Source: Gemmatimonadota bacterium (lineage in GTDB: Bacteria; Gemmatimonadota; Gemmatimonadetes; Gemmatimonadales; GWC2-71-9). From it: a DNA stretch of 64,000 bases. Both the position numbers and the translations under genes were made by a program. The notes under the pieces are model-generated. The model was not told the origin of the DNA. It did not search any database and was given only the letters and a program-made list of their open reading frames with translations. The stretch lies in contig JBDHAB010000019.1 of NCBI GenBank assembly GCA_039588295.1, positions 32,001 to 96,000 of the forward strand. The letters are read 5' to 3'. The number at the start of each line of letters is the position of its first letter. Position 1 is the stretch's first letter. This document shows, piece by piece, positions 1 through 63,163 of the stretch.

Positions 1-556
1 CGACTTCATTGGGCTCGGGCTGCAAGGCTTCCAGAACCGGCTCCCCGTGGTGGACGAGTCGTTGGTGTTCTATGCCGGGCTGCTGGGTCCGCAGCAGCGA
101 TCGGCAGAAGCGCTGCAACGTATGCTCGAAGACTACTTCGGGATTCCGGTGGAGGTCGAGCAGTTCATCGGGGGTTGGTATCCGCTGCCGGCCGCAACCC
201 ACTGTACGCTCGGTGAGGAAACGGGCAGCTTCACGCAGCTCGGGCGGGGCGCGGTGGTGGGGGACGCCGTGTGGGATCAGCAGGCTCGCGTTCGGATCAA
301 GCTGGGACCGCTCACGAGAGCCCAGTACGAGGAGTTTCTTCCCGAGAGAGAGGCGTATCTGGCCCTGCGAGCCTTGACGAGATTCTTCAGCGATGACCGC
401 TTTGACTTCGAGGTGCAACTGATCCTGGCCCGCGGCGACGTGCCCGGCTGCACACTCGAGATGGACGACGGCGCCGGCCTGCGGCTTGGCTGGTTCACCT
501 GGATCAGCTCGAAGCCGTTTGCGCATGACCCGGACGATACGATCCTCAGCCTCTAG
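1..556 (+). CDS. tssG: Type VI secretion baseplate subunit TssG (5'-truncated by window edge)
   Basis: Frame open from base 2 (DFIGLGLQG...FYAGLL...RSAEALQRMLEDYFGIPVEVEQFIGGW...LG..VWDQQARVRIKLGPL...LGW.TW), typical of TssG/ImpH; directly upstream of clpV and vgrG. Confidence 0.9.
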   Translation, partial: DFIGLGLQGFQNRLPVVDESLVFYAGLLGPQQRSAEALQRMLEDYFGIPVEVEQFIGGWYPLPAATHCTLGEETGSFTQLGRGAVVGDAVWDQQARVRIKLGPLTRAQYEEFLPEREAYLALRALTRFFSDDRFDFEVQLILARGDVPGCTLEMDDGAGLRLGWFTWISSKPFAHDPDDTILSL

Positions 557-571
557 CGCGAGGGAGCCGCT

Positions 572-3268
572 ATGAATGTCGATCTGCGATCTCTGATTGG
601 AAGACTCAACCATGAGGCGCGAAATGCGATCGAAGCCGCGGCGGGTCTGTGCCTCTCGCGCACGCATTACGACGTCGAAATCGAGCACTACTTGATGAAG
701 GTGTTGGACGCAAGCGACGGGGACGTGGCGTTCATTCTCAAGCACTTCGGGGTGGACCGCTCGCGGCTGGCGAAGGACGTCACGCAGACCCTGGACCGGT
801 TCAAGACGGGCAATGCCCGAACGCCATCGCTGAGTCCCAGTCTCGTCAAGATGCTGTCGGAGGCCTGGCTCCTGGCGTCGGTGGAACATGGGGCGTCGCA
901 ACTCCGCACCGGTCACACCATGCTCGCGCTGGCAGTGAGCGAGGAGCTTCGGCGGCTGGTGCTGGAGACCAGCCGGGAGTTCCAGAAGCTCTCGGGCGAA
1001 GCACTGCGCCAGGACTTCGCGACGATCGTGGGGGAGTCCGTGGAGGAGACGGCGGCAGCCGCGGCACCGGTCGAAGGAGCGCCCCGCCCCGGGGGCAAGA
1101 CGCCCAATCTCGATCAGTTCACCGTCAACCTCACGCAACGGGCCAGGGACGGACACCTGGATGTGGTGCTCGGTCGGGACTTCGAGATACGGCAAGTGGT
1201 GGACATCCTGACTCGGCGACGCCAAAACAATCCGATCTTGGTGGGTGAAGCCGGGGTAGGGAAGACGGCTGTCGTCGAGGGGTTCGCCATGCGGATCGGG
1301 CAGGGGGATGTGCCGCCCGTGCTGAAGAACGTCACGATCCACACACTCGATCTCGCGCTCCTCCAAGCCGGGGCAGGGGTGAAGGGCGAGTTCGAGAATC
1401 GCATCAAGAGCCTTATCGAAGAGGTGCGCTCATCGGAGACGCCCATCATCCTGTTCATCGACGAGGCGCACACGATGATCGGTGCCGGGGGGGCCGCCGG
1501 TCAGGGGGACGCAGCCAACCTGCTCAAGCCGGCGCTCGCCCGCGGTGAGCTCCGAACGATCGCGGCAACGACCTGGTCGGAATACAAGAAGTATTTCGAA
1601 AAAGATCCGGCGTTGGCCCGGCGGTTCCAGTTGGTCAAGGTCGACGAGCCGACGGAGCCGTCCTGCGCCTTGATGATGCGCGGCGTCGCCCCGAGTCTGG
1701 AGAAGCACCATGGGGTGCGGATCCTCGACGACGCAATCGACGCCGCCGTGCGGCTGTCACATCGGTATCTGCCCGATCGACAGCTTCCCGATAAGGCCGT
1801 ATCCGTGCTCGACACCACGTGCGCCCGACTCGCACTTGGGCAGAGTGCGACGCCGGCAGCCATTGAGGACGCGAGGCGTACGCTCGACGACTTGGCGGTC
1901 CAGACCCGAGTGCTCGAGCGGGAGCAGGCAGTGGGCACGGACCATTCGGAGCGGTTGACCAGCCTCGCCGAGCAACGAGCAGAAACGGAGGCGAGACTGA
2001 CGTCCCTCACCGGACAGTGGGAGCAGGAGCGCGAGCTGGTGAAGCGGGTTCGGGAGTTGCGCGGGCAGCTCGAAGCGAGTGTCGCCGAGGAAGCGAAGCC
2101 GGCCAAGAAGAAGAGCGCCAAGAAGGATCTCGCTGCTCTCCGCGACGAGTTGGCAGGACTCACGGCGGAGCTCGACGCATTGCAGGGAGAAGCAGCCCTG
2201 GTGCCCGTAACGGTCGATTCCGACTTGGTGGGACAGGTCATTTCCGGATGGACGGGGATTCCGGTCGGCAAAATGCTGCGAGACGAAGTGGCGACCGTTC
2301 TCCGCCTCGAGGAGCACCTCGGACAACGCATCATCGGGCAGTCGCACGCGCTGGAAGGGATCAGCCAGCGCATTCGCACCTCGCGTGCGGGGAGCGAGGA
2401 TCCGAACAAGCCCGTTGGGGTCTTTATGCTCGTCGGCCCCAGCGGGGTCGGCAAGACCGAGACGGCCCTGGTACTCTCGGACTTGCTGTACGGCGGTGAC
2501 CGCAACCTCATTTCGATCAACATGTCGGAGTTCCAGGAGGCACATACCGTCTCGACGCTCAAGGGGTCGCCTCCCGGGTATGTCGGATACGGTGAAGGTG
2601 GTGTCCTGACGGAGGCGGTGCGGCGGCGGCCGTATTCCGTGGTGTTGTTGGATGAGGTCGAGAAGGCTCACCCAGACGTGCTCGAGCTGTTCTTCCAGGT
2701 CTTTGACAAGGGGGTCATGGAGGACGGCGAGGGTCGGCAGATCGACTTCAAGAACACGATCATCATGTTGACGACCAACGCGGGGACTGAGACGATCATG
2801 ACGCTGACGGCAGATCCGGAGACGATGCCGGATGCCGCCGGGCTCGCCAAGGCCCTGAAACCCGAGCTGAACAAGACCTTCAAGCCGGCGTTCCTTGGCA
2901 GGCTCGTGATTATCCCGTACTTCCCGATCCGTGATGATGCGATGAAGCACATTATCCGGCTCAAGCTCGGCAAGATCGAGCGGCGGCTCGCGGAGACGCA
3001 TCGAGTCACTCTGAAGTACGACGACACCATGATCGACGAAATTGCGGGGCGGTGTACGGAGGTTGAGAGTGGGGCGCGAAATGTCGACAACATCCTCACG
3101 AATACGATGTTGCCCGAGGTTTCTCGGCACTTGCTCGAATCTCTCGCGGAGGGAGCCAAGCTGGACATCATTCGAGTCAGCGTCGGTGACGGCGGCGCGT
3201 TTCAGTACTCGATGGAGTCAGCGGCAGGTGGGAGCAGCCGGGCTGCAGCGACGGGTGCACTCGCCTGA
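572..3268 (+). CDS. tssH: Type VI secretion AAA+ ATPase ClpV/TssH
   Basis: ClpV-type N-terminus (LIGRLN...AAGLCLSRTHYDVEIEH); two Walker A motifs GEAGVGKT and GPSGVGKT; T6SS context. Confidence 0.95.
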   Translation: MNVDLRSLIGRLNHEARNAIEAAAGLCLSRTHYDVEIEHYLMKVLDASDGDVAFILKHFGVDRSRLAKDVTQTLDRFKTGNARTPSLSPSLVKMLSEAWLLASVEHGASQLRTGHTMLALAVSEELRRLVLETSREFQKLSGEALRQDFATIVGESVEETAAAAAPVEGAPRPGGKTPNLDQFTVNLTQRARDGHLDVVLGRDFEIRQVVDILTRRRQNNPILVGEAGVGKTAVVEGFAMRIGQGDVPPVLKNVTIHTLDLALLQAGAGVKGEFENRIKSLIEEVRSSETPIILFIDEAHTMIGAGGAAGQGDAANLLKPALARGELRTIAATTWSEYKKYFEKDPALARRFQLVKVDEPTEPSCALMMRGVAPSLEKHHGVRILDDAIDAAVRLSHRYLPDRQLPDKAVSVLDTTCARLALGQSATPAAIEDARRTLDDLAVQTRVLEREQAVGTDHSERLTSLAEQRAETEARLTSLTGQWEQERELVKRVRELRGQLEASVAEEAKPAKKKSAKKDLAALRDELAGLTAELDALQGEAALVPVTVDSDLVGQVISGWTGIPVGKMLRDEVATVLRLEEHLGQRIIGQSHALEGISQRIRTSRAGSEDPNKPVGVFMLVGPSGVGKTETALVLSDLLYGGDRNLISINMSEFQEAHTVSTLKGSPPGYVGYGEGGVLTEAVRRRPYSVVLLDEVEKAHPDVLELFFQVFDKGVMEDGEGRQIDFKNTIIMLTTNAGTETIMTLTADPETMPDAAGLAKALKPELNKTFKPAFLGRLVIIPYFPIRDDAMKHIIRLKLGKIERRLAETHRVTLKYDDTMIDEIAGRCTEVESGARNVDNILTNTMLPEVSRHLLESLAEGAKLDIIRVSVGDGGAFQYSMESAAGGSSRAAATGALA

Positions 3269-3307
3269 CCGACGCATCACCACATTTGGCAAGGAACGAG
3301 GCAGCGT

Positions 3308-5281
3308 ATGCCGGAGTACTCTCAGGCCAATCGCCCCATCCGAGTCGAGACCGCGCTAGGCGAAGACGTGCTGCTGTTGGAGGCATTCTCCGGTGAGGAG
3401 CGTGTCTCCGCGCCGTATGCGTTCACGCTCGAGCTGGTGTCGCAGGATGCCGCCATAGAGCCGGTGAAGGTACTGCGGTCTCCGGCAGCAGTCATGATTG
3501 ACTTACCCAACGGGGAGAAACGTGCCATCCACGGGTTGATCAGTCGGTTCGTGCAGCTGGGACAGACTGGAGGCGCGGACCTGACTGCGTATCGTGCGGA
3601 GTTGGTTCCGTGGCTCTGGTTTCTCTCTCTGTCGTCCGACTGCAAGGTCTTCCAGAACATGACCGTTCTCGAGATCGTGGAGCAGGTGTTCAAGGACCTG
3701 GGTTACTCCGATTTCGAGATCAAGTGCGTGAAGAGCCACCCCAAGCGAGAGTTCTGTGTCCAGTATCGGGAAACGCATCTGAACTTCGTGTCTCGGCTGT
3801 TAGAGGAAGAGGGCATCTTCTACTTCTTCAACCACACGAGCTCCAAGCATGTGTTGACCCTGGCCGACGACGTCAGCGCCGTCAAACCGTGTCCCGGCCA
3901 GGCGGCCGCGCGGATGGCGGTGAAGTCGGGTGGGTGGCAGGAGGAGGACGTCGTCACGGCGGTCGAGCGGGAACATGCAGCGTATATCGGGAAGGTCACC
4001 CTCCGCGAATTCGACTATCTGCAACCGTCACTTCGATTGGAAAGCTCGGTGTCTGGCGACGGGCACGGGGAGATCTACGACTACACGTTTCCGGGGAACT
4101 TCAAGTCGCCAGACACCGGTGATCAATTGGCACGCCTGCAACTCGAGGAACAGGAGCAGTGGCATGAGGTCGTGCGAGGTGACGGCACGTGCCGCTCATT
4201 TCAGAGCGGCTGCCGCTTCGACCTCAAGGAGCACTACCGAGGTGAGGTGAATCAAGCGTACCAGTTGCTGCGAGTCCACCATGCGGCTCGAACGGGGGGC
4301 TACCGCTCCCGGACCGAAGACGAGTTCGACTATCGCAACGGCTTCGTCGCAATTCCGCACACCGTGCCATTTCGCCCACCGCGCATCACGCCGAAGCCGG
4401 TGGTCCAGGGCTCGCAGACGGCGCTGGTGGTGGGGAAGGCGGGCGAGGAGATCTGGGTGGACAAGCATGGCCGGGTGAAGGTGCAGTTCCACTGGGATCG
4501 GGACGGCAAGAAGGACGAGAACAGCTCGTGCTGGGTCCGCGTGTCGAGCACCTGGGCTGGCAAGGGGTGGGGCTTCGTGCAGATACCGCGTATCGGGCAG
4601 GAGGTGATCGTCGATTTCCTCGAAGGTGACCCGGACATGCCCATCATCACCGGCCGAGTCTACAATGCCGAACAGGTGCCGCCGTATGCCCTGCCGGCGA
4701 ATCAGACCCAGAGCGGGGCCAAGTCACGCAGCTCTAAAGGCGGTGGCACGGACAACTTCAATGAGCTCCGGTTCGAGGACAAGAAGGGAAGTGAGGAAGT
4801 CTACCTGCAGGCCGAAAAGGACCTCACAGCCAAGGTCAAGAATGACGCGTCGGCGCAGATCGGCAACGACCGCACGGTCGTCATCCAGAACAACGACACC
4901 TTGACCGTGGAGAAGGGAGACCAGGCCGTCGACATCAAGATGGGCGACCAGACGATCACCTTGGGCCAAGGGAATCAGAACATCGTCATCAAGATGGGCG
5001 ATCAGAATACCCAGGTTGACATGGGGAACATGAGCACCAAAGTGTCAATGGGTAACATCTCCACCAAGGCCGATCTCGGTGCGGTGGCCGTAGAGGGGAT
5101 GCAGGGAATCGAGTTCAAAGTTGGGGGGAGCAGCGTGAAGATCGATCAGATGGGAGTGACCATGAAAGGCATGATGGTCAAGATAGAAGGCCAGGTTCAG
5201 ACCGACGTCAAGGGTCTGATGACCAACATCAACGGCGACGCCATGCTGAAGGTCAAGGGTGGCATAACCATGATCAACTAG
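3308..5281 (+). CDS. vgrG: Type VI secretion spike protein VgrG/TssI
   Basis: CVQYRETHLNFVSRLLEEEGIFYFF, GRVKVQFHWDR, PRIGQEVIVDFLEGDPDMPII, NELRFED motifs; gp5-like beta-helical C-terminus; no effector extension. Confidence 0.95.
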   Translation: MPEYSQANRPIRVETALGEDVLLLEAFSGEERVSAPYAFTLELVSQDAAIEPVKVLRSPAAVMIDLPNGEKRAIHGLISRFVQLGQTGGADLTAYRAELVPWLWFLSLSSDCKVFQNMTVLEIVEQVFKDLGYSDFEIKCVKSHPKREFCVQYRETHLNFVSRLLEEEGIFYFFNHTSSKHVLTLADDVSAVKPCPGQAAARMAVKSGGWQEEDVVTAVEREHAAYIGKVTLREFDYLQPSLRLESSVSGDGHGEIYDYTFPGNFKSPDTGDQLARLQLEEQEQWHEVVRGDGTCRSFQSGCRFDLKEHYRGEVNQAYQLLRVHHAARTGGYRSRTEDEFDYRNGFVAIPHTVPFRPPRITPKPVVQGSQTALVVGKAGEEIWVDKHGRVKVQFHWDRDGKKDENSSCWVRVSSTWAGKGWGFVQIPRIGQEVIVDFLEGDPDMPIITGRVYNAEQVPPYALPANQTQSGAKSRSSKGGGTDNFNELRFEDKKGSEEVYLQAEKDLTAKVKNDASAQIGNDRTVVIQNNDTLTVEKGDQAVDIKMGDQTITLGQGNQNIVIKMGDQNTQVDMGNMSTKVSMGNISTKADLGAVAVEGMQGIEFKVGGSSVKIDQMGVTMKGMMVKIEGQVQTDVKGLMTNINGDAMLKVKGGITMIN

Positions 5282-5283
5282 CG

Positions 5284-5886
5284 ATGAGCGATACACCGCC
5301 AATGCTCCGTTCGGGACGGACGGTCGCGGAAATCTGTGGGGCTTCGGAGTTGAGCGACGAGGCCTTGACGCTGCTCGCGGACCGTCAGGTACCCAAGGAG
5401 TATGTCGAGCTCTTGATGGAGCAGGAGCTCTATCCCGACGCGGTTCGGTTTCTGGCGCATGCGCTGCCCAAGCGGGAGGCCGTGTGGTGGGCGTGGGTGT
5501 GTGCGCGGCGGGCCGCGGGCGAAGAGCCGCCGGATGATATTCAGGCGGTGCTCGAGGCAACCAGGCAGTGGATTGCCGAGCCGACGGACGGGCATCGGCG
5601 TGCCGCCATGGAACTGGCCGAGCAAGTCGGGTTCGACAAACCGGCCGGGTCTGCCGCGCTCGCAGCGTTCTTCAGCGGAGAGTCCCTTGCCCCCGCTGAT
5701 GTCGAGCAGCCCGTGCCACCCGGAGAATACATGGCGGCCAAAGCCATCACAGGGTGCATTCTGTTGGCGACCGTTGGCACGGAGCCGGAAAGAGCGGGGG
5801 AGAAGTTCCAGGACTTCGTGCAGCAGGGGATGGAGGTGGCGGAGAAGATCGAACTGTGGAAGCCGCCGGAGGAGTCACGCGGATGA
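5284..5886 (+). CDS. DUF6931-like T6SS-associated protein
   Basis: DAVRFLAHALPKREAVWWAWVC and AAFFSG.SLAP motifs match a family I recall sitting between vgrG and PAAR; starts 2 nt after the vgrG stop. Confidence 0.7.
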   Translation: MSDTPPMLRSGRTVAEICGASELSDEALTLLADRQVPKEYVELLMEQELYPDAVRFLAHALPKREAVWWAWVCARRAAGEEPPDDIQAVLEATRQWIAEPTDGHRRAAMELAEQVGFDKPAGSAALAAFFSGESLAPADVEQPVPPGEYMAAKAITGCILLATVGTEPERAGEKFQDFVQQGMEVAEKIELWKPPEESRG

Positions 5887-5918
5887 TTCGCTCTCGGACA
5901 CAGACGAGGTAGACGGCA

Positions 5919-6215
5919 ATGGGATTCCCAGCCGCTAGAGTGGCCGATATGCACGTGTGTCCCATGGTGACCCCGCCAGCCATTCCGCACGTCGGAGGAC
6001 CCATCCTCCCACCCGGGTGCGTGCTAGTGCTGATCGGCGGAATGCCGGCGGCGCGGCTGGGGGACATGGCCACGTGCGTCGGCCCGCCGGATGTGATCGT
6101 CAAGGGTTCGCCGACCGTGCTGATCGGTGGCATGCCCGCGGCCCGAATGCTGGACATGACGGTGCATGGCGGGACAATCGTCTCTGGGTTCCCGATGGTG
6201 TTGATCGGGCCGTGA
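5919..6215 (+). CDS. PAAR domain spike-tip protein
   Basis: Three PAAR motifs, with His/Cys metal-ligand candidates (HVCP, PH, VHG). Confidence 0.92.
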   Translation: MGFPAARVADMHVCPMVTPPAIPHVGGPILPPGCVLVLIGGMPAARLGDMATCVGPPDVIVKGSPTVLIGGMPAARMLDMTVHGGTIVSGFPMVLIGP

Positions 6216-6291
6216 CCTCCCTACGCCAGGGACCCTCCAATCGGCCCTCACCGTTTCGCCGGAGATAGCAGTCGGCCAAGTAGAGCTGAAT

Positions 6292-7113
6292 ATGTCCCTG
6301 CCAAGCACGATTCGAGACGTGGGTCGCGGTGTAGTTGGATTGACGCGTAGACCCAAGACGACACCCGGGGGTCTTGGCATGTGTGATGAGTTTGCCGGCT
6401 CTCGCAAAGGTACTCTCGTTGCGCAGGCCGCATCTCCGTTAGGGATTCGAGTCCTCGCGGAGTTTGACAAAGAGAATGGTGTCATCTGGGCAAACGAAGC
6501 CCTGCTGCAAGCAATGGCAAGGGCACGCAGTACTGGAACAAAACTGAGCGAGGCCAACGTCGCAACGCTCACCCATGAATTTGCTCATGTGTTGGACTAT
6601 GAGGATATCTTCGAAAAATTCAAAGACAGAGGGAGAATTACTGCCGAGTTAGCGGAAATCGCTTCTGCGTTACGAACCCGGCTGGCCGAAAAGGTGAACA
6701 ACACGACGGAAGTCCAGTTTATGCAACACTATCTCGCCAAGGAGAGGTCCGCGGAAGAGTATGCGAAGAAGATTACTGCAGAGCTCAGAGGGTATCATGG
6801 CAGCCTACGAGCATTCTGGGTGAGCCAAGCCCTGGATACATGGGCTCATAACACCAAAACAACGTATGAAGAGGATGCCCGCGGTACCTATAGGAGAATA
6901 AAAAGGCAACTTAAGGAACTCGGTAACTCTCCGTCGAAAGTGGCAGCCGAAGCGGAGAAGAAGAAGAAGTACAGACAAAAATTGCTGCCCGTTTATACAA
7001 TCGTCGATATCTTCCCTGGAAGAGAGGAGTCTCTCACGTTACACAACCTGTTGGAGATGATAAGCGAATACCATGTGGTGATAGTAGTATCGGTGCCTAT
7101 TGAATCGAGGTAG
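6292..7113 (+). CDS. Putative zincin (HExxH) metallopeptidase, candidate T6SS effector
   Basis: 273-aa ORF containing THEFAHVLD; lower GC (28/60 G+C in bases 6841-6900); immediately downstream of PAAR. Confidence 0.55.
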   Translation: MSLPSTIRDVGRGVVGLTRRPKTTPGGLGMCDEFAGSRKGTLVAQAASPLGIRVLAEFDKENGVIWANEALLQAMARARSTGTKLSEANVATLTHEFAHVLDYEDIFEKFKDRGRITAELAEIASALRTRLAEKVNNTTEVQFMQHYLAKERSAEEYAKKITAELRGYHGSLRAFWVSQALDTWAHNTKTTYEEDARGTYRRIKRQLKELGNSPSKVAAEAEKKKKYRQKLLPVYTIVDIFPGREESLTLHNLLEMISEYHVVIVVSVPIESR

Positions 7114-7456: not shown

Positions 7457-7828
7457 TCAAGTGCGGTCGTCGAAGGCCGCGAGATATGGCTGGTCCCAGG
7501 CGATGTCGAAGCGCTGGCAGCAGTCGTCGCAGCGCATCGCCTGCGGCCGCCCGATCGGGAGTTGCCGGTAGCGGCAGCTGGGGCACACCGCATAGCCCTT
7601 GGCCCAACGGGCCGGTATCACGGCCGAGTTGCGGGCACGTGACACGATGGTCCATTGGGCCGGCCGAGTGGCAACGAGCTCCAAGTGGCGGAGCGGTAAG
7701 GACCGCGGCTTTCCGTGCACGTCGAGCAAGACCTCTGTACGTCCCAGCGCCACGGTCCGGTACCACGCGCCTCGGCGCAGGCCGCAGTCGACATCCTCGC
7801 GCAGACGCGCCCATTGTGCGACGGGCAA
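7457..7828 (-). CDS. Hypothetical protein with C-terminal Zn-ribbon (CPSC...CDDC)
   Basis: QWARLREDVDCGLRRGAWY...YAVCPSC...CDDC; probable TTG start at 7828 with GGAG/GAGG upstream (ORF is open to 7900). Confidence 0.6.
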   Translation of the reverse strand: MPVAQWARLREDVDCGLRRGAWYRTVALGRTEVLLDVHGKPRSLPLRHLELVATRPAQWTIVSRARNSAVIPARWAKGYAVCPSCRYRQLPIGRPQAMRCDDCCQRFDIAWDQPYLAAFDDRT

Positions 7829-7914: not shown

Positions 7915-8075
7915 GCGCACCCCTCGCTGCCGCCGCCGAGCGTTGCCAGAGACGAGCGTTGCCAGAGACGAGCGTGTGCGCAGGAATTGTCAGGAGGGCG
8001 AAAGCGAAGCAGGCGGATAGTCACTCAGGCAAACGGTATTGAAGGCTTCCGTGTCGGCCTTTCGCCCTCCTCACT
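7915..8075 (-). ncRNA. Candidate sigma-54-driven structured RNA or leader, copy 1
   Basis: 13-bp perfect stem 7992-8004/8059-8071; shares multiple blocks with 12019-12156; sigma-54 box sits at the same spacing upstream in both copies. Confidence 0.6.
7937..7975. repeat. 16-bp tandem repeat CGAGCGTTGCCAGAGA x2.4
   Basis: Units at 7937-7952 and 7953-7968, partial unit at 7969-7975. Confidence 0.85.
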
Positions 8076-8085
8076 CAACGAGTGA

Positions 8086-8101
8086 TGCAAGAGCCACGCC
8101 A
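8086..8101 (-). promoter_or_regulatory. Sigma-54 (-24/-12) promoter TGGCGTGGCTCTTGCA
   Basis: GG-N10-GC with TGGC and TTGCA matching the RpoN consensus; predicted +1 near 8075. Confidence 0.65.
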
Positions 8102-8368
8102 AAGTGGCGTCCTCTGAGGTGTCAGCGTCGATGCTCGTGGTTGCGAATCTCGGTGGGAAGCACGGTGCCCCGACCGAGATACTTGGATATCACCCGTCCG
8201 TGGGGCTCCAAACGCGGTGTTCTGTCTGGAACGTGGGAATCCTTGACGTGAAGCCAAGGACGCCGAGGCACCGCACCTGTACGACCCCCACGCCACCGTA
8301 GAGTTCCCGCCGGAATGACCGCGACCTCCTCGCCTCGACCCCACGGTCGGACTAGCTTGCGGTGAGCC

Positions 8369-9037
8369 ATGCGCGACCCATCAAATCGCCTCAGGACCAG
8401 TCTCTTTGTGGCCATCGTCGTCAGCGGGTCCGCGGTCACCGTGAGCGCCGCATCCGCCCAGCGCGAGGTGCACGGCACGATCCTCACGTCGCCTGTCATG
8501 CCGGTTGCGCGTCTTGCGCTCGACTCGACGCTGTCGTACGTCGGGACCCAAACCGTCATGCTGTCGCCCACCACGCGGGCGGAGCAACACTTCTTCGTCG
8601 AATCCGACCGCGGTCGGGTCAAGCGGCTCTATTGGGTCCAGTTCGAAGGGAAGCTGGAGGGCCGAGGCCGGCCCTACGACTATTCGAACGATCCCACGAT
8701 CGAATTCGCCGGACAGGTGTTTCACACGAACCACCGGTTCTATCCCACGAGCGGATTCGCCGGGCGTGCCGGATCGGACGGAGACCACGCGCAGCAGCTC
8801 CTGGAGCGAGCGGGGTTGACCCTCGGCACCGACCTGATGCGGGTTCGGCTTGTCTGGTTACTGGACGACCCACCACGGAACGAGCTGATGATCATCTACC
8901 TCGAAGATTTGGCCGATCACGGGCTCACCGTGGTCGACCTGAGGAAGGAGCCGGAGCGTTGGGCGGACGTTGCGACAGGCCTCCGGCGGCGTGCGTTACA
9001 CGGCATGCGACTCGTTGCCACGCAACGTCGGCGGTAA
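8369..9037 (+). CDS. Hypothetical secreted protein
   Basis: Signal-peptide-like N-terminus ending ASA-Q; normal codon pattern. Confidence 0.7.
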   Translation: MRDPSNRLRTSLFVAIVVSGSAVTVSAASAQREVHGTILTSPVMPVARLALDSTLSYVGTQTVMLSPTTRAEQHFFVESDRGRVKRLYWVQFEGKLEGRGRPYDYSNDPTIEFAGQVFHTNHRFYPTSGFAGRAGSDGDHAQQLLERAGLTLGTDLMRVRLVWLLDDPPRNELMIIYLEDLADHGLTVVDLRKEPERWADVATGLRRRALHGMRLVATQRRR

Positions 9038-9052
9038 CCGGACTCCGCACGG

Positions 9053-9370
9053 ATGGTTGGCCTCATCGTGGCTATCGGTTTTGCCGTGCTGTTCCATCGC
9101 ATGGCGGCGTATGAACGCTTGTCTCCGTGGATGTGGGCCGCGGCCAGCTTCGCGCTTTCAATGGTCGTCCTGCTCGTCATGGGCTTCGCACCGGTCCTCT
9201 TCGCACAGGTGGCCCTGTACGGAGTGATGTGGTGGTACAACGCACGGAAGGGCGGCAGACGCGAGCAGGATTGGGCGGCGAGGCGCGAGGAGCAACATCA
9301 CATCGAAGAGGAGCGGTGGCGCCGCGCGCAAGAGGAAATCCAGCGCGATCGCAAGCGACGCGAACGGTGA
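9053..9370 (+). CDS. Small membrane protein with charged C-terminal tail
   Basis: About three hydrophobic segments followed by an E/R-rich helix; 15 nt after the upstream stop. Confidence 0.65.
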   Translation: MVGLIVAIGFAVLFHRMAAYERLSPWMWAAASFALSMVVLLVMGFAPVLFAQVALYGVMWWYNARKGGRREQDWAARREEQHHIEEERWRRAQEEIQRDRKRRER

Positions 9371-9595
9371 GCTTCGCCGGTCCGCGGACCGGCACACAAC
9401 CGTTCAGAATTCGCCGGTAATCCGACGCCGCTCCCGCGAGAATCTCGCAGCTACCGACCCACGTACTACCCCCTGTTGTGATAGTCGTCACGGTACCGGC
9501 TCCGATCGCGCCGTAGCGTGAACGGAATGCGTCGAGCCCGGCGCGGGCGGCGGACAACAGGTCGGCCGCTTCCGACACCACGGGAGGAACGACTG

Positions 9596-10246
9596 ATGCA
9601 CATCGCACTGCGCACCAAGCGGGTGGTGGTGGCCACGGCGACGTTGACCCTGCTCGCCGCGCCCGCCTTGCACGCCCAGGGGGTCTCAATCGCGCCGTCC
9701 ATCGGCATCTACGCGCCGACGACCGACTTGGTGAACAGCTTGATCAGCGGCGGTAGCACCATTGCCTTCAAGCAGAAGGTCGGACTCGCGCTCGGTGGTC
9801 GTGTTGGCCTCTGGTTCAGTCCCCGGATCGGCGTCACGGCGACGGGTTCGTATGTCCCGAGCAAGCTGCAGGCGACGATTACCGAGACCGGGATCTCGCA
9901 AGACGCGGCGAGCAACACCACCCTTTGGTTCGGCACCGGGCGGCTCAACGTCTGGCTGCTGCCGCCGTCGAGCATTCTGTCGATTGGCGTGAACGGCGGC
10001 GTCGGCGTTGTGGGCCGCGGCGCGACGACTGTGACCGATGACAACGGCACGACCTATACCGACCAGTCGAGAAACGACATCGGCGGCGTCGTAGGCGGCA
10101 CCGTCGGCCTCAATCTCGGCGTCATCGGTGTGTTCGTGTCGGTGGACGACTACATCTACAATCCAAGCGTGTTCGAACAGCTCGGTGTGAAGTCCCGGAC
10201 CCAGAACGACCTTCAGTTCTCGTTCGGGTTCGGCGGGAAGTTCTGA
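9596..10246 (+). CDS. Outer-membrane beta-barrel protein
   Basis: GGAGG RBS, signal peptide (ALHA-Q), alternating beta-strand pattern, C-terminal FSFGFGGKF. Confidence 0.75.
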   Translation: MHIALRTKRVVVATATLTLLAAPALHAQGVSIAPSIGIYAPTTDLVNSLISGGSTIAFKQKVGLALGGRVGLWFSPRIGVTATGSYVPSKLQATITETGISQDAASNTTLWFGTGRLNVWLLPPSSILSIGVNGGVGVVGRGATTVTDDNGTTYTDQSRNDIGGVVGGTVGLNLGVIGVFVSVDDYIYNPSVFEQLGVKSRTQNDLQFSFGFGGKF

Positions 10247-10251
10247 GCGAG

Positions 10252-10324
10252 CGTTTGACGGCAGCCCGTGCTGCCGCGACCGTCAAACGAACCAAACGCC
10301 CGGCCCGTAGGCCGGGCGTTTGGT
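10252..10324. terminator. Tandem hairpins between convergent genes (likely bidirectional terminator)
   Basis: 10-bp IR 10252-10261/10280-10289 and 15-bp perfect IR 10291-10305/10310-10324. Confidence 0.75.
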
Positions 10325-10331
10325 GTCTCGT

Positions 10332-11498
10332 TCAGCTCGTCCCTCCAGCTGCCTCACGCAACAGGTTTCGCGCGATCACCAATCGCTGGACCTGATTCGT
10401 CCCTTCGTAGATCTGGGTGATCTTCGCGTCCCGCATGAACTTCTCGATGGGGTAGTCCTTGCAGTATCCGTAGCCGCCGAACAGCTGGACGCAGTCCGTC
10501 GTCACCCGCATGGCCACGTCGGTTGCCATGAGCTTGCACATGGCGGAGATCTTGGTGATCTGCTTGTGCCCCGAGTCGATGGTTCTGGCGGCGGCATGCA
10601 CGAGCTGGCGAGCTGCCTCGACCTGGGTCGCCATATCCGCCAACATCCACTGGATGCCCTGGAAGGAACTGACCGGCTGGCCGAACTGCTGCCGCTCGTG
10701 CGTGTACTGCATCGCCAAATCGAGCGCGCCTTGCGCGAGTCCCACCGCCTGCGCCGCCACACCGGGACGGGCCCGGTCCAGGGTGATCATGGCGTGCTTG
10801 AAGCCGAGGCCCTCCCGCTCCCCCAGCAGGTGGTCGGCCGGGACGCGGCAATCCTCCAGATGGATCTCGACGACCGGTACGCAACGGATGCCCATCTTGT
10901 CCTCGTGCTTGCCCACGCGATAGCCGGGGGTCCCCTCCTCGACGACGAACGCCGAGATGCCGCGCGCACCCCGATCGGGATTGGTGACCGCAAAGATGGT
11001 GTTGAACGCCGCAACCGCGCCGCCGGTGTTCCACTTCTTCTCACCGTTCAACACGTACGTGTCGCCGTCCCGCGCCGCGCGAGTGGTCATCGAGCCGGCG
11101 TCCGATCCGGCCATCTTCTCCGACAGGCCGAACGCGATCAGCTTCTCCCCCGCCGCGATCGGAGGTAGCCAGCGCTCCTTTTGCTCATCGGTCCCACCCA
11201 CGAGAATCGGGAACGAGCCCAACGCGTTGACGGCGAAGCCGACACCCATACCGCCGCAGGCCCGGGAGAATTCCTCTACCACAATGCACAGGTCGAGCAC
11301 ACCGCCACCGAGGCCACCGTACTCGGGCGGAATCCAGACACCGGACAGTTCGGCCTCCTTGATCGCCTTCTGGACTTCCCAGGGATAGGTCTGCTCGACA
11401 TCGTACTTGGCGGCCACGGGGCGCATGACCGTTTCGGCAAGCTCCCGAGCGCGTTCTCGAAGTTCGATTTGCTGGGCGGTGTAGAGCTCTTTGATCAT
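10332..11498 (-). CDS. Acyl-CoA dehydrogenase
   Basis: AFGLSE..AGSD, LNGEKKW.T, KMGIR, R.QFG.P..SFQ, FGGYGY, TQIYEGTNQVQR motifs. Confidence 0.95.
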   Translation of the reverse strand: MIKELYTAQQIELRERARELAETVMRPVAAKYDVEQTYPWEVQKAIKEAELSGVWIPPEYGGLGGGVLDLCIVVEEFSRACGGMGVGFAVNALGSFPILVGGTDEQKERWLPPIAAGEKLIAFGLSEKMAGSDAGSMTTRAARDGDTYVLNGEKKWNTGGAVAAFNTIFAVTNPDRGARGISAFVVEEGTPGYRVGKHEDKMGIRCVPVVEIHLEDCRVPADHLLGEREGLGFKHAMITLDRARPGVAAQAVGLAQGALDLAMQYTHERQQFGQPVSSFQGIQWMLADMATQVEAARQLVHAAARTIDSGHKQITKISAMCKLMATDVAMRVTTDCVQLFGGYGYCKDYPIEKFMRDAKITQIYEGTNQVQRLVIARNLLREAAGGTS

Positions 11499-11645
11499 CG
11501 TAACACTCGTCTTCGGGTTCGCAGTCTTGGTGGACCAGGGGTCGCCCTGGGATCGTACAATAGTACGGGGTGTGACGCTTCGTCGCCTGTCACCCGGGCC
11601 GGGAGAATGCGGGTCCCGCCTCCGACCGCAGGCCTCGACGCTGTG

Positions 11646-11837
11646 CTAGCCGATCTTGCCGTCGCGGTTGAGGTCCTCGCCAATCGCCTGTTCGAGTCGC
11701 AGCAACAGCGCCTGCAGCAACTCCTGCGTGTGACGGTGCTCGACTTCGAGTCGCGCAACGCGGTCGTCCAGTGACGCCGATCGATCTTGCTGTTTGCTGA
11801 TCTGATTCTGTTGGATCAAGTCCCAGAACAGGCCCAT
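11646..11837 (-). CDS. Small coiled-coil protein (63 aa) ending in a DxNxDG loop
   Basis: GGAGG RBS; MGLFWDLIQQ...LDDRVARLE...EDLNRDGKIG. Confidence 0.7.
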   Translation of the reverse strand: MGLFWDLIQQNQISKQQDRSASLDDRVARLEVEHRHTQELLQALLLRLEQAIGEDLNRDGKIG

Positions 11838-12018
11838 GAGTTGACCTCCGGCCAAAGCGTGCAGTTCCTGTCGCAAAATATAGTCGGGGACTGACCGATG
11901 TCCGGCCGGGCAACGCCGCACACGTATGCCGAAGGCGTGTTGTGAGTCCGCAACGCAGAAATGGAGAAGTGTTGAGACGTCGCGCTAGCGGGTCGGCTAC
12001 ACTTTCAAGCAGCCGCGA

Positions 12019-12156
12019 GCGCACACATAGCCGCCGCCGAGCGCGGAGGACGTGCCCGGGGAGTATTTAGTGGTCAGGAGGGCGAAGACGATCATGGCGG
12101 ACAACCAGCCAAGCAAGGGTGAGAAGGGGTCGGTCCTCGTCTTCGCCCTCCTCGGC
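12019..12156 (-). ncRNA. Candidate sigma-54-driven structured RNA or leader, copy 2
   Basis: 16-bp perfect stem 12076-12091/12137-12152; homologous to 7915-8075 with compensatory stem changes. Confidence 0.6.
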
Positions 12157-12166
12157 CAACAGAATA

Positions 12167-12182
12167 TGCAAGAAGCCAGCCA
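12167..12182 (-). promoter_or_regulatory. Sigma-54 (-24/-12) promoter TGGCTGGCTTCTTGCA
   Basis: GG-N10-GC, TGGC...TTGCA; predicted +1 near 12156. Confidence 0.65.
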
Positions 12183-63089: not shown

Positions 63090-63163
63090 GGGCGAATAGC
63101 TCAGGGGTTCAGAGCGCCTGCCTTACAAGCAGGAAGTCGGGGGTTCAAATCCCTCTTCGCCCA
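63090..63163 (+). tRNA. tRNA-Val (anticodon TAC)
   Basis: Acceptor stem GGGCGAA/TTCGCCC, D arm TAGCTCAG, anticodon arm CCTGC-CTTACAA-GCAGG, T loop GGTTCAAATCC; CCA not encoded. Confidence 0.97.

Follow-up and report, generated by a model that had tools for sequence, protein, structure and literature searches.

Comparison with Described Sigma-54-Dependent Small RNAs

The small RNAs (sRNAs) known to be driven by sigma-54 include Qrr of Vibrio and CrcZ/NrsZ of Pseudomonas, which are often present in several copies; Qrr and CrcZ depend on Hfq. Another such RNA, GlmY, is a decoy for the protein RapZ. In this work, two copies of a predicted sigma-54-driven RNA were analysed on the minus strand of a 64,000-nucleotide (nt) stretch of a Gemmatimonadota genome (contig JBDHAB010000019.1, positions 32,001 to 96,000), referred to below as the window. 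Sequence comparison indicates that they belong to a real, uncatalogued, lineage-restricted family of predicted sigma-54 sRNAs, which is duplicated in the window genome. By analogy, this RNA would work most like GlmY; it is laid out most like Pxr and is a member of neither family.

The GlmY/GlmZ RNAs of the Enterobacteriaceae are likewise free-standing sigma-54 sRNAs that form a homologous pair, and GlmY acts without pairing to mRNA, according to the available part of PMC3045617. In the available part of PMC3162934, GlmY/GlmZ are the only sigma-54 sRNAs treated. The Gemmatimonadota RNA differs from them in being a single predicted rod from a different phylum with no Rfam match; RapZ was found in none of the five genomes searched, and neither a TGTC-N10-GACA-type site nor any other common upstream site was detected. 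Pxr of the myxobacteria, as described in the accessible sections of PMC5568312 and PMC5684412, is similar in being a lineage-restricted sigma-54 sRNA of ~110 nt whose 5′ structure is conserved and whose 3′ stem-loop varies, some genomes having diverged paralogues as well. However, the same sections give Pxr three stem-loops and a place behind the activator gene nla19, whereas the Gemmatimonadota RNA is predicted to form one end-to-end rod and has no activator gene beside it in the flanks scanned. The Hfq on which Qrr and CrcZ depend was not found in the window genome (G000), and, in contrast to Qrr and CrcZ/NrsZ, the members have no common accessible seed or repeated motif. The original prediction had recognised the sequence as neither Qrr nor Pxr, and this agrees with the lack of an Rfam match.

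The Two Copies in the Window

The features of the two copies are as follows, (−) denoting the minus strand.

8087..8101 (−): copy 1, sigma-54 −24/−12 box (TGGC-N7-TTGC), predicted start 8074-8076
7988..8075 (−): copy 1, conserved RNA rod of ~87 nt, from the predicted fold and the family alignment
8071-8059 with 8004-7992 (−): copy 1 rod, closing stem P1, followed by a variable internal loop
8051-8048 with 8017-8014 (−): copy 1 rod, helix P2 (CGGA/UCCG)
8046-8042 with 8026-8021 (−): copy 1 rod, bulged-U helix P3, bulged U at 8023
8041-8027 (−): copy 1 rod, variable apical loop
7915..7987 (−): copy 1, A/C-rich linker and 3′ hairpin closed by GCGCAC/GTGCGC
7944-7959 and 7960-7975 (−): copy 1, 16-bp tandem duplication in the 3′ region
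12168..12182 (−): copy 2, sigma-54 −24/−12 box, predicted start 12155-12157
12072..12156 (−): copy 2, RNA rod of ~84 nt, the more diverged paralogue
12152-12137 with 12091-12076 (−): copy 2 rod, closing stem P1
12133-12130 with 12101-12098 (−): copy 2 rod, P2 variant CCGA/UCCG with one C·C mismatch
12128-12124 with 12110-12105 (−): copy 2 rod, bulged-U helix, bulged U at 12107, compensatory CC/GG and one C·C mismatch
12019..12071 (−): copy 2, linker and weak 3′ hairpin (GCAC 12055-12052 with GTGC 12024-12021) enclosing the 14-mer
7929-7942 and 12030-12043 (−): copies 1 and 2, identical 14-mer

The two boxes (8101-8087 and 12182-12168) are both separated by 16 nt from the −12 C to GGAGGGCG, and the closing stems are perfect over 13 bp in copy 1 and 16 bp in copy 2, as had been reported from the window alone. 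The compensatory changes claimed between these stems (AG:CT versus GA:TC) are partly a shift of the alignment, because copy 1 holds one extra A-U pair; what remains for copy 2 in the family alignment is a single clear double change, from G-C to A-U. Against dinucleotide shuffles, the rod folds had z-scores of −2.5 (copy 1) and −5.4 (copy 2). Among the 77 TGGC-N6-YTTGC sites of the genome, the two copies have the longest closing stems (13 stacked pairs; the runner-up has 10). BLASTN alone ties copy 1 to copy 2 weakly (E 0.05-0.06), and it is the family members that make the kinship firm. Copy 1 is nearer the family norm, and copy 2 is a duplicate that has retained the promoter, the fold and the bulged U, with changes at bases that are otherwise near-invariant. 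A third copy was not found in the 4.5-Mb window genome with two covariance models.

Family Members and Distribution

In total, 17 distinct members were collected. Eight of the nine genomes in the window's genus carry the RNA, as does a single genome from another genus, and the rest come from metagenome contigs; all carrier records bearing names are Gemmatimonadota. These members support the predicted paralogous family of structured sRNAs behind sigma-54 boxes. Of 40 related genomes searched by BLAST, four, each belonging to the window's genus, gave relatives with E about 1e-11, and the covariance model R1 contributed G004 and G460. A promoter-plus-stem pattern run on a species-level genome collection gave 115 matches, from which seven members, titled Gemmatimonadota, Gemmatimonadales or Gemmatimonadaceae, were kept and 108 matches discarded. 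The same kind of pattern in metagenomes gave 68 matches, of which 57 were discarded and 11 were members (seven new sequences and four duplicates). Neither collection pattern placed any constraint on the rod interior. The resulting alignment, A4, contains 16 distinct sequences with an identity of 43-97% (mean 65%). A second model, R2, matched eight of the nine genomes of the genus and brought in the divergent 17th member, in G007 (E 2.8e-7).

The distribution of the family is narrow. G460, the one carrier among seven genomes of its own genus, was the only genome found to have it outside the window's genus, and no clear member was seen when the search was extended to more genomes of the family (150 with a model, 400 with two patterns) and of the class (150 with a model). 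Divergent members may have escaped the large model searches, since only 22-24 candidates were scored per genome. One clear copy is present in every carrier genome other than that of the window, which has two. A loose stem-only pattern applied to 401 genomes of the phylum matched 162 of them and gave mostly background.

Weak matches were judged by the promoter and the interior motifs. Those of model R1 in five of ten genomes, as well as those of later model searches (4, 8 and 3), were discarded as missing the promoter, the interior motifs or both. The weak R2 matches were also discarded, namely four running antisense to a true member, L313 after inspection, and L316 and L317 without inspection. 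L227 (31-35 bits) was rejected as a near-perfect hairpin without the interior motifs, and L248, which scored 23 bits only, was retained on its motif parse. In a promoter-free scan for the interior motifs, 8 of 14 matches had no closing stem; in a scan for the promoter plus P3, 5 of 14 had no model match. No member was found in viral contigs by several pattern scans, in one of which 80 of at least 120 matches were scored. Three viral contigs (L296, L304 and L305) have a common hairpin motif, CGGA..CCTC...GAGTGGAAATCCGC, without the promoter or closing stem of the rod family.

At the gathering threshold, an Rfam 15 search of the window returned one tRNA only and matched neither copy. At E up to 10, nothing matched copy 1, and copy 2 drew three weak hairpins scoring 16-19 bits. 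The RNA of a further member, L166, had no match either. Beyond these weak hairpins, the match to an existing Rfam family that in the original prediction would have removed the novelty was not obtained. Gemmatimonadota are abundant and barely studied, and no sigma-54 sRNA or other account of such an RNA in this phylum was found in the open-access literature searched; the supplements of motif catalogues may list motifs outside Rfam.

Predicted Structure of the RNA

Every member is predicted to form a rod of ~85-90 nt, with a G/C-rich closing stem, a CGGA/UCCG helix (lost in the divergent G007) and a short bulged-U helix. The rod is supported by pairing across the members, the RNA ends being placed by prediction. 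In the 16 aligned members, the P1 pairs comprise 151 Watson-Crick, 21 G·U, 0 A·C and 4 other combinations. Over P1 and P2 together, 96% of the cells are paired, a value that none of 500 shuffles reached and that falls to 50-55% when the partners are slid. P2 alone is paired in 62 of 64 cells, and in G007 the P1 sequence is rewritten with the pairing kept. No conserved ATG-started open reading frame (ORF) was found in the 16 members.

Because G·U pairs number 21 and A·C pairs 0, the strand is fixed and an RNA is favoured over a DNA palindrome. The presence of two separate copies, each bounded by terminal inverted repeats, in rearranged DNA by a type VI secretion cluster could suggest a non-transcribed DNA element, such as a REP/MITE-like repeat, an integron att site or a protein-binding palindrome. 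Nevertheless, besides the strand-specific G·U pairs, there are only two copies in 4.5 Mb, the synteny is fixed in four relatives, and no viral-contig member was found among the matches scored. Of the many promoter-less copies expected of a REP/MITE-like repeat, not one was found in a promoter-free motif scan. Such an element is hardly to be expected here.

The interior was parsed as P2, a small asymmetric loop, two pairs, the bulged U and CUY/GAG. All 16 aligned members have the bulged U, and so does G007 (17/17); in 14 of the 16, the outer pair flanking it takes the form G-C, G·U, U-A or C-G. The loop between P2 and P3 varies in size (0x3, 1x3 or 1x1 nt) and in bases. The short motifs that had been placed inside the loop were indeed found in the two window copies, but the family model makes most of them strands of helices. 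The invariant bases sit in the helices and the bulge and not in the loops.

Invariant bases clustering at an asymmetric loop and a bulge might form a tertiary pocket, as in a ribozyme or an aptamer. We give this little credence, in view of a variable P2-P3 loop, no Rfam similarity and no linked gene to regulate. Two further likenesses were rejected. The P2-P3 loop resembles the helix-8 loop of the signal recognition particle (SRP) RNA, and this resemblance is restricted to four close relatives; an approximate SRP pattern matched nothing in the genome and was uninformative. As for an acceptor stem like that of tRNA-Ala or tmRNA, neither the G·U position nor the CCA end is conserved.

Predicted Sigma-54 Promoter

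The TGGC-N7-TTGC box is present in all 17 members. Across the 16 aligned ones, a spacer of 15-17 nt and variable sequence separates the box from the stem core, and RpoN is encoded in the window genome (E 2.6e-63). Transcription from sigma-54 promoters usually starts 11-13 nt after the −12 C, and a start with this spacing falls on the 5′ arm of the closing stem. For three relatives the BLAST alignments left out the promoter, and the box is nonetheless there; in the promoter-free motif scan, all six matches having the closing stem also carry it. The conservation of the box is not circular in these cases, because the box played no part in finding them.

Genomic Context

The RNA is a free-standing gene, independent of its neighbours. 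Eight of the 17 members run towards the 3′ end of a gene on the convergent strand, which encodes an FAD/BBE oxidase in five cases, a YgjP-like protein in two and a lyase in one. The other nine, both window copies included, have a same-strand next ORF of one of six unrelated types. In four close relatives the order is fixed: an outer-membrane-barrel-like gene, a small membrane protein, the RNA and an acyl-CoA dehydrogenase gene. The window retains the outer-membrane-barrel-like and acyl-CoA dehydrogenase genes, rearranged, between the two copies.

It had been proposed as one option that the element is a conserved 5′ leader controlling the small downstream genes. The same-strand ORFs in 9/17 members and the acyl-CoA dehydrogenase gene behind the RNA of four close relatives would fit a cis-acting leader. 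However, the eight convergent members and the six unrelated types of same-strand neighbours make a leader role unlikely, and the two small genes themselves do not point to it. ORF 11646-11837 (−), of 63 aa, is an insertion that separates copy 2 from the acyl-CoA dehydrogenase gene, and it has a sigma-70-like site of its own (11904-11877) as well as a GGAGG ribosome-binding site. ORF 7457-7828 (−), which ends in a CxxC...CxxC zinc ribbon, has three paralogues in the window genome, none with a sigma-54 box within 400 nt upstream. Neither ORF matches a Pfam family above the cut-off. Altogether, we assign the leader very little probability.

In G015, a gene resembling ORF 7457-7828 (L318:1156-1515) is followed by a long G/C-rich rod with a weak model score, which is ambiguous and was not counted as a member.

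The remaining window contains a few other features of note. Positions 1-7113 hold the end of a type VI secretion cluster, with ORFs that are ClpV-like and VgrG-like by appearance, DUF6931 and PAAR. Within it, ORF 6292-7113 (273 aa) has a HEFAH motif and a weak Peptidase_M43 match and may be an effector. A tRNA gene, the single Rfam match of the window at the gathering threshold, is located at 63090-63163 (+).

Possible Mode of Action

Since conservation falls on helices and a bulge rather than on exposed strands, the RNA would be recognised by its shape, by a protein. It is quite possible, at a little less than an even chance, that the free-standing, sigma-54-induced rod serves as a decoy or scaffold for a specific protein. 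We suggest the following course of events. First, an enhancer-binding activator would turn on the sigma-54 promoter upon some signal. The transcript would begin at the 5′ arm of the closing stem, fold as a rod and probably end past the variable 3′ hairpin. Then, judging by the conservation pattern, a protein may read the GGGCG/CGCCC core, the CGGA/UCCG helix and the bulged-U helix. As a result, this protein would be titrated or tethered, and the signal thereby relayed after transcription.

A number of points weigh against this decoy or scaffold role. Transcription is, first of all, a prediction. Covariation is modest, with double changes in 3 of 17 pairs, a count reached by 84 of 500 shuffles. 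G007 has no P2, although its bulged-U module is kept, and the P3 register is a hand parse that energy minimisation reproduces in some members only. The invariance of the P1 core and the promoter is partly circular in the seven metagenome-only members, because both belonged to the search pattern by which these were found. No shared activator site was detected in up to 300 nt upstream, where the best 8-mer occurs in four lineages compared with five to six in shuffles, and no canonical terminator was called for either window copy. Among candidate partners, RapZ (PF03668) was found in none of five genomes, four of them carriers, and Ro60/TROVE (PF05731) in none of six carrier genomes. CsrA was found in none of five relatives, all carriers, and had one match in G000, on a 3.9-kb contig. 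Finally, conserved helices can equally serve the processing or stability of a base-pairing RNA.

The absence of any single protein is a soft result, because the genomes are 78-99% complete. Taken together, however, Hfq, ProQ, RapZ and Ro60 were not found and CsrA gave one stray match in the genomes tested, so the reader of the RNA is probably none of the known sRNA proteins. The identity of the rod as a RapZ decoy was rejected because PF03668 was not found in the five genomes searched. A CsrA/Rsm sponge was rejected as well: the GGA motifs (one to three per rod) are paired, with an unpaired probability of ≤0.12, and CsrA was not found in the five carriers. The sole CsrA-like gene of the window genome (L185:1390-1686, contig C109) stands among short ORFs, possibly in a prophage or a foreign fragment.

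A trans-acting, base-pairing sRNA like Qrr or Pxr is the alternative to which we give the most weight, and we hold it to be possible though unlikely. According to it, a precursor or a chaperone-opened rod would pair with ribosome-binding sites through its exposed apical loop, through the linker or through the 3′ arm of P1 with its CCUCC(U) tract. A sigma-54 box, a stem-loop and a variable 3′ hairpin make up the layout of Pxr, which is processed to a short active form (PMC5568312, in the part available). CCUCC occurs in the P1 3′ arm of 11 of 16 members, and CCU-type motifs occur in some apical loops. At the same time, the best accessible 5-mer is common to only 6 of 17 members, and the CCUCC(U) anti-Shine-Dalgarno tract is missing in 5 of 16 and paired throughout, with an unpaired probability of 0.0. 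The suggestion that a C/U-rich loop pairs with Shine-Dalgarno regions was therefore not borne out, the apical loop being variable and the tract buried in the closing stem. Nor were the usual chaperones found: Hfq in G000, ProQ in five genomes (four of them carriers) and the Jag_N domain in nine genomes, short KhpB forms falling outside the last search. An Hfq- or ProQ-dependent pairing sRNA was rejected because these two proteins were not found in the genomes just named and because there is no conserved accessible seed.

Comparison with 6S RNA raises another alternative, in which the rod would bind RNA polymerase, possibly its own sigma-54 holoenzyme, as a feedback brake. The rod resembles 6S RNA in its closing stem and internal loop, and none of 39 genomes examined in the order gave an Rfam 6S match. 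The usual slot of 6S RNA is between zapA and rny; in the window genome, ~100 nt separate zapA from the gene that follows (L275:1815-1917), and this slot has no match. On the other hand, the rod of 84-88 nt is about half the 187-position 6S model and shows no similarity to it at E up to 10, and its internal loop is variable in sequence and size. It also differs from 6S RNA in its sigma-54 box and in a distribution that is nearly confined to one genus, as against the order-wide lack of 6S. We thus find such a promoter mimic very unlikely, and a canonical 6S RNA was rejected for its length and for the absence of an RF00013 match.

In the Y RNAs (YrlA, YrlB and Yrn), the 5′ and 3′ ends likewise pair in a long stem. 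Bacterial Y RNAs are marked by a GNCGAAN0-1G motif and by a Ro60 gene usually within 4 kb, as stated in the available part of PMC4201824. This motif is present near the 5′ end in both window copies, L241 and L213; the remaining 12 aligned members have GGCGAG or GGCGGA in its place. Unlike the Y RNAs, the family has the motif broken in most members and no tRNA-like domain by Rfam, and this identity was rejected because Ro60 was not found in six carrier genomes.

Returning to the decoy or scaffold, it is doubtful, but worth stating, that the partner is of a kind not yet known as RNA-controlled; in the boldest version, the rod would be a mini 6S-like brake on the sigma-54 holoenzyme that transcribes it, or on its activator, within an order for which no 6S RNA was detected. 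The alignment supplies a bait and controls (the bulged U and P2) for a partner search, within the limits set by the narrow distribution and by hosts that are apparently uncultured, the named carrier records being metagenome-assembled genomes.

The 3′ Region and the Shared 14-mer

Downstream of the rod there is an A/C-rich linker, after which most members form a hairpin whose sequence is unrelated from one to the next. In L230 and L215, the closest relatives, this hairpin is clean, spans 14-16 bp and leads into a short U-rich run, as in a terminator, and the 3′ hairpin of copy 1 is possibly a terminator remnant whose sequence is not conserved. As no canonical terminator was called, read-through into the ORF downstream of copy 1 is possible.

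The 14-mer reported for the two copies is present at both sites, but the second stem said to contain it folds no better than shuffles (z +0.9 and +1.1). It occurs only twice in the window genome and is non-random, since 0 of 1500 random genomic segments have a 14-mer in common with that region. It is absent from 14 of 14 other members and private to the window genome, and is a relic of the duplication rather than a family motif.

In two members only, L088 and L124, the linker after the closing stem reads ATCACCTCCT or AACCTCCT, a close copy of the 3′ tail of 16S rRNA.

Related Elements in Other Records

A second rod with a sigma-54 box was observed in two unrelated records, at L069:9-116 and L212:1449-1573. 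It has the same ends, GGAGGGCGA...TTCGCCCTCC, and another conserved interior (CCTGCCGAG ... GGCTCA.CGGGAG), and is probably a separate uncatalogued family. Acido-Lenti-1 RNAs are located directly upstream of the rod in L212.

Three more elements with a sigma-54 box (L137:3001-3112, L156:300-419 and L227:890-995) have ends of the GGRGGGCG/CGCCC type and other interiors. The element of L137, a Blastocatellia record, directly follows the apparent helix-turn-helix end of a sigma-54 activator gene. The element of L156, a Planctomycetota record, contains GCTTGAGTGC, as in the Gemmatimonadota rod family. Because unrelated records (L069, L212, L137 and L156) have similar ends and different interiors, the rod could alternatively be one example of a broader class, in which sigma-54-driven rods have GGRGGGCG/CGCCC closing stems.

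Hairpin repeats of GGCGGTGGAAGGCGGTGGAG-like units are frequent in G072, G118, G355 and other Gemmatimonadota genomes and are unrelated to the rod RNA.

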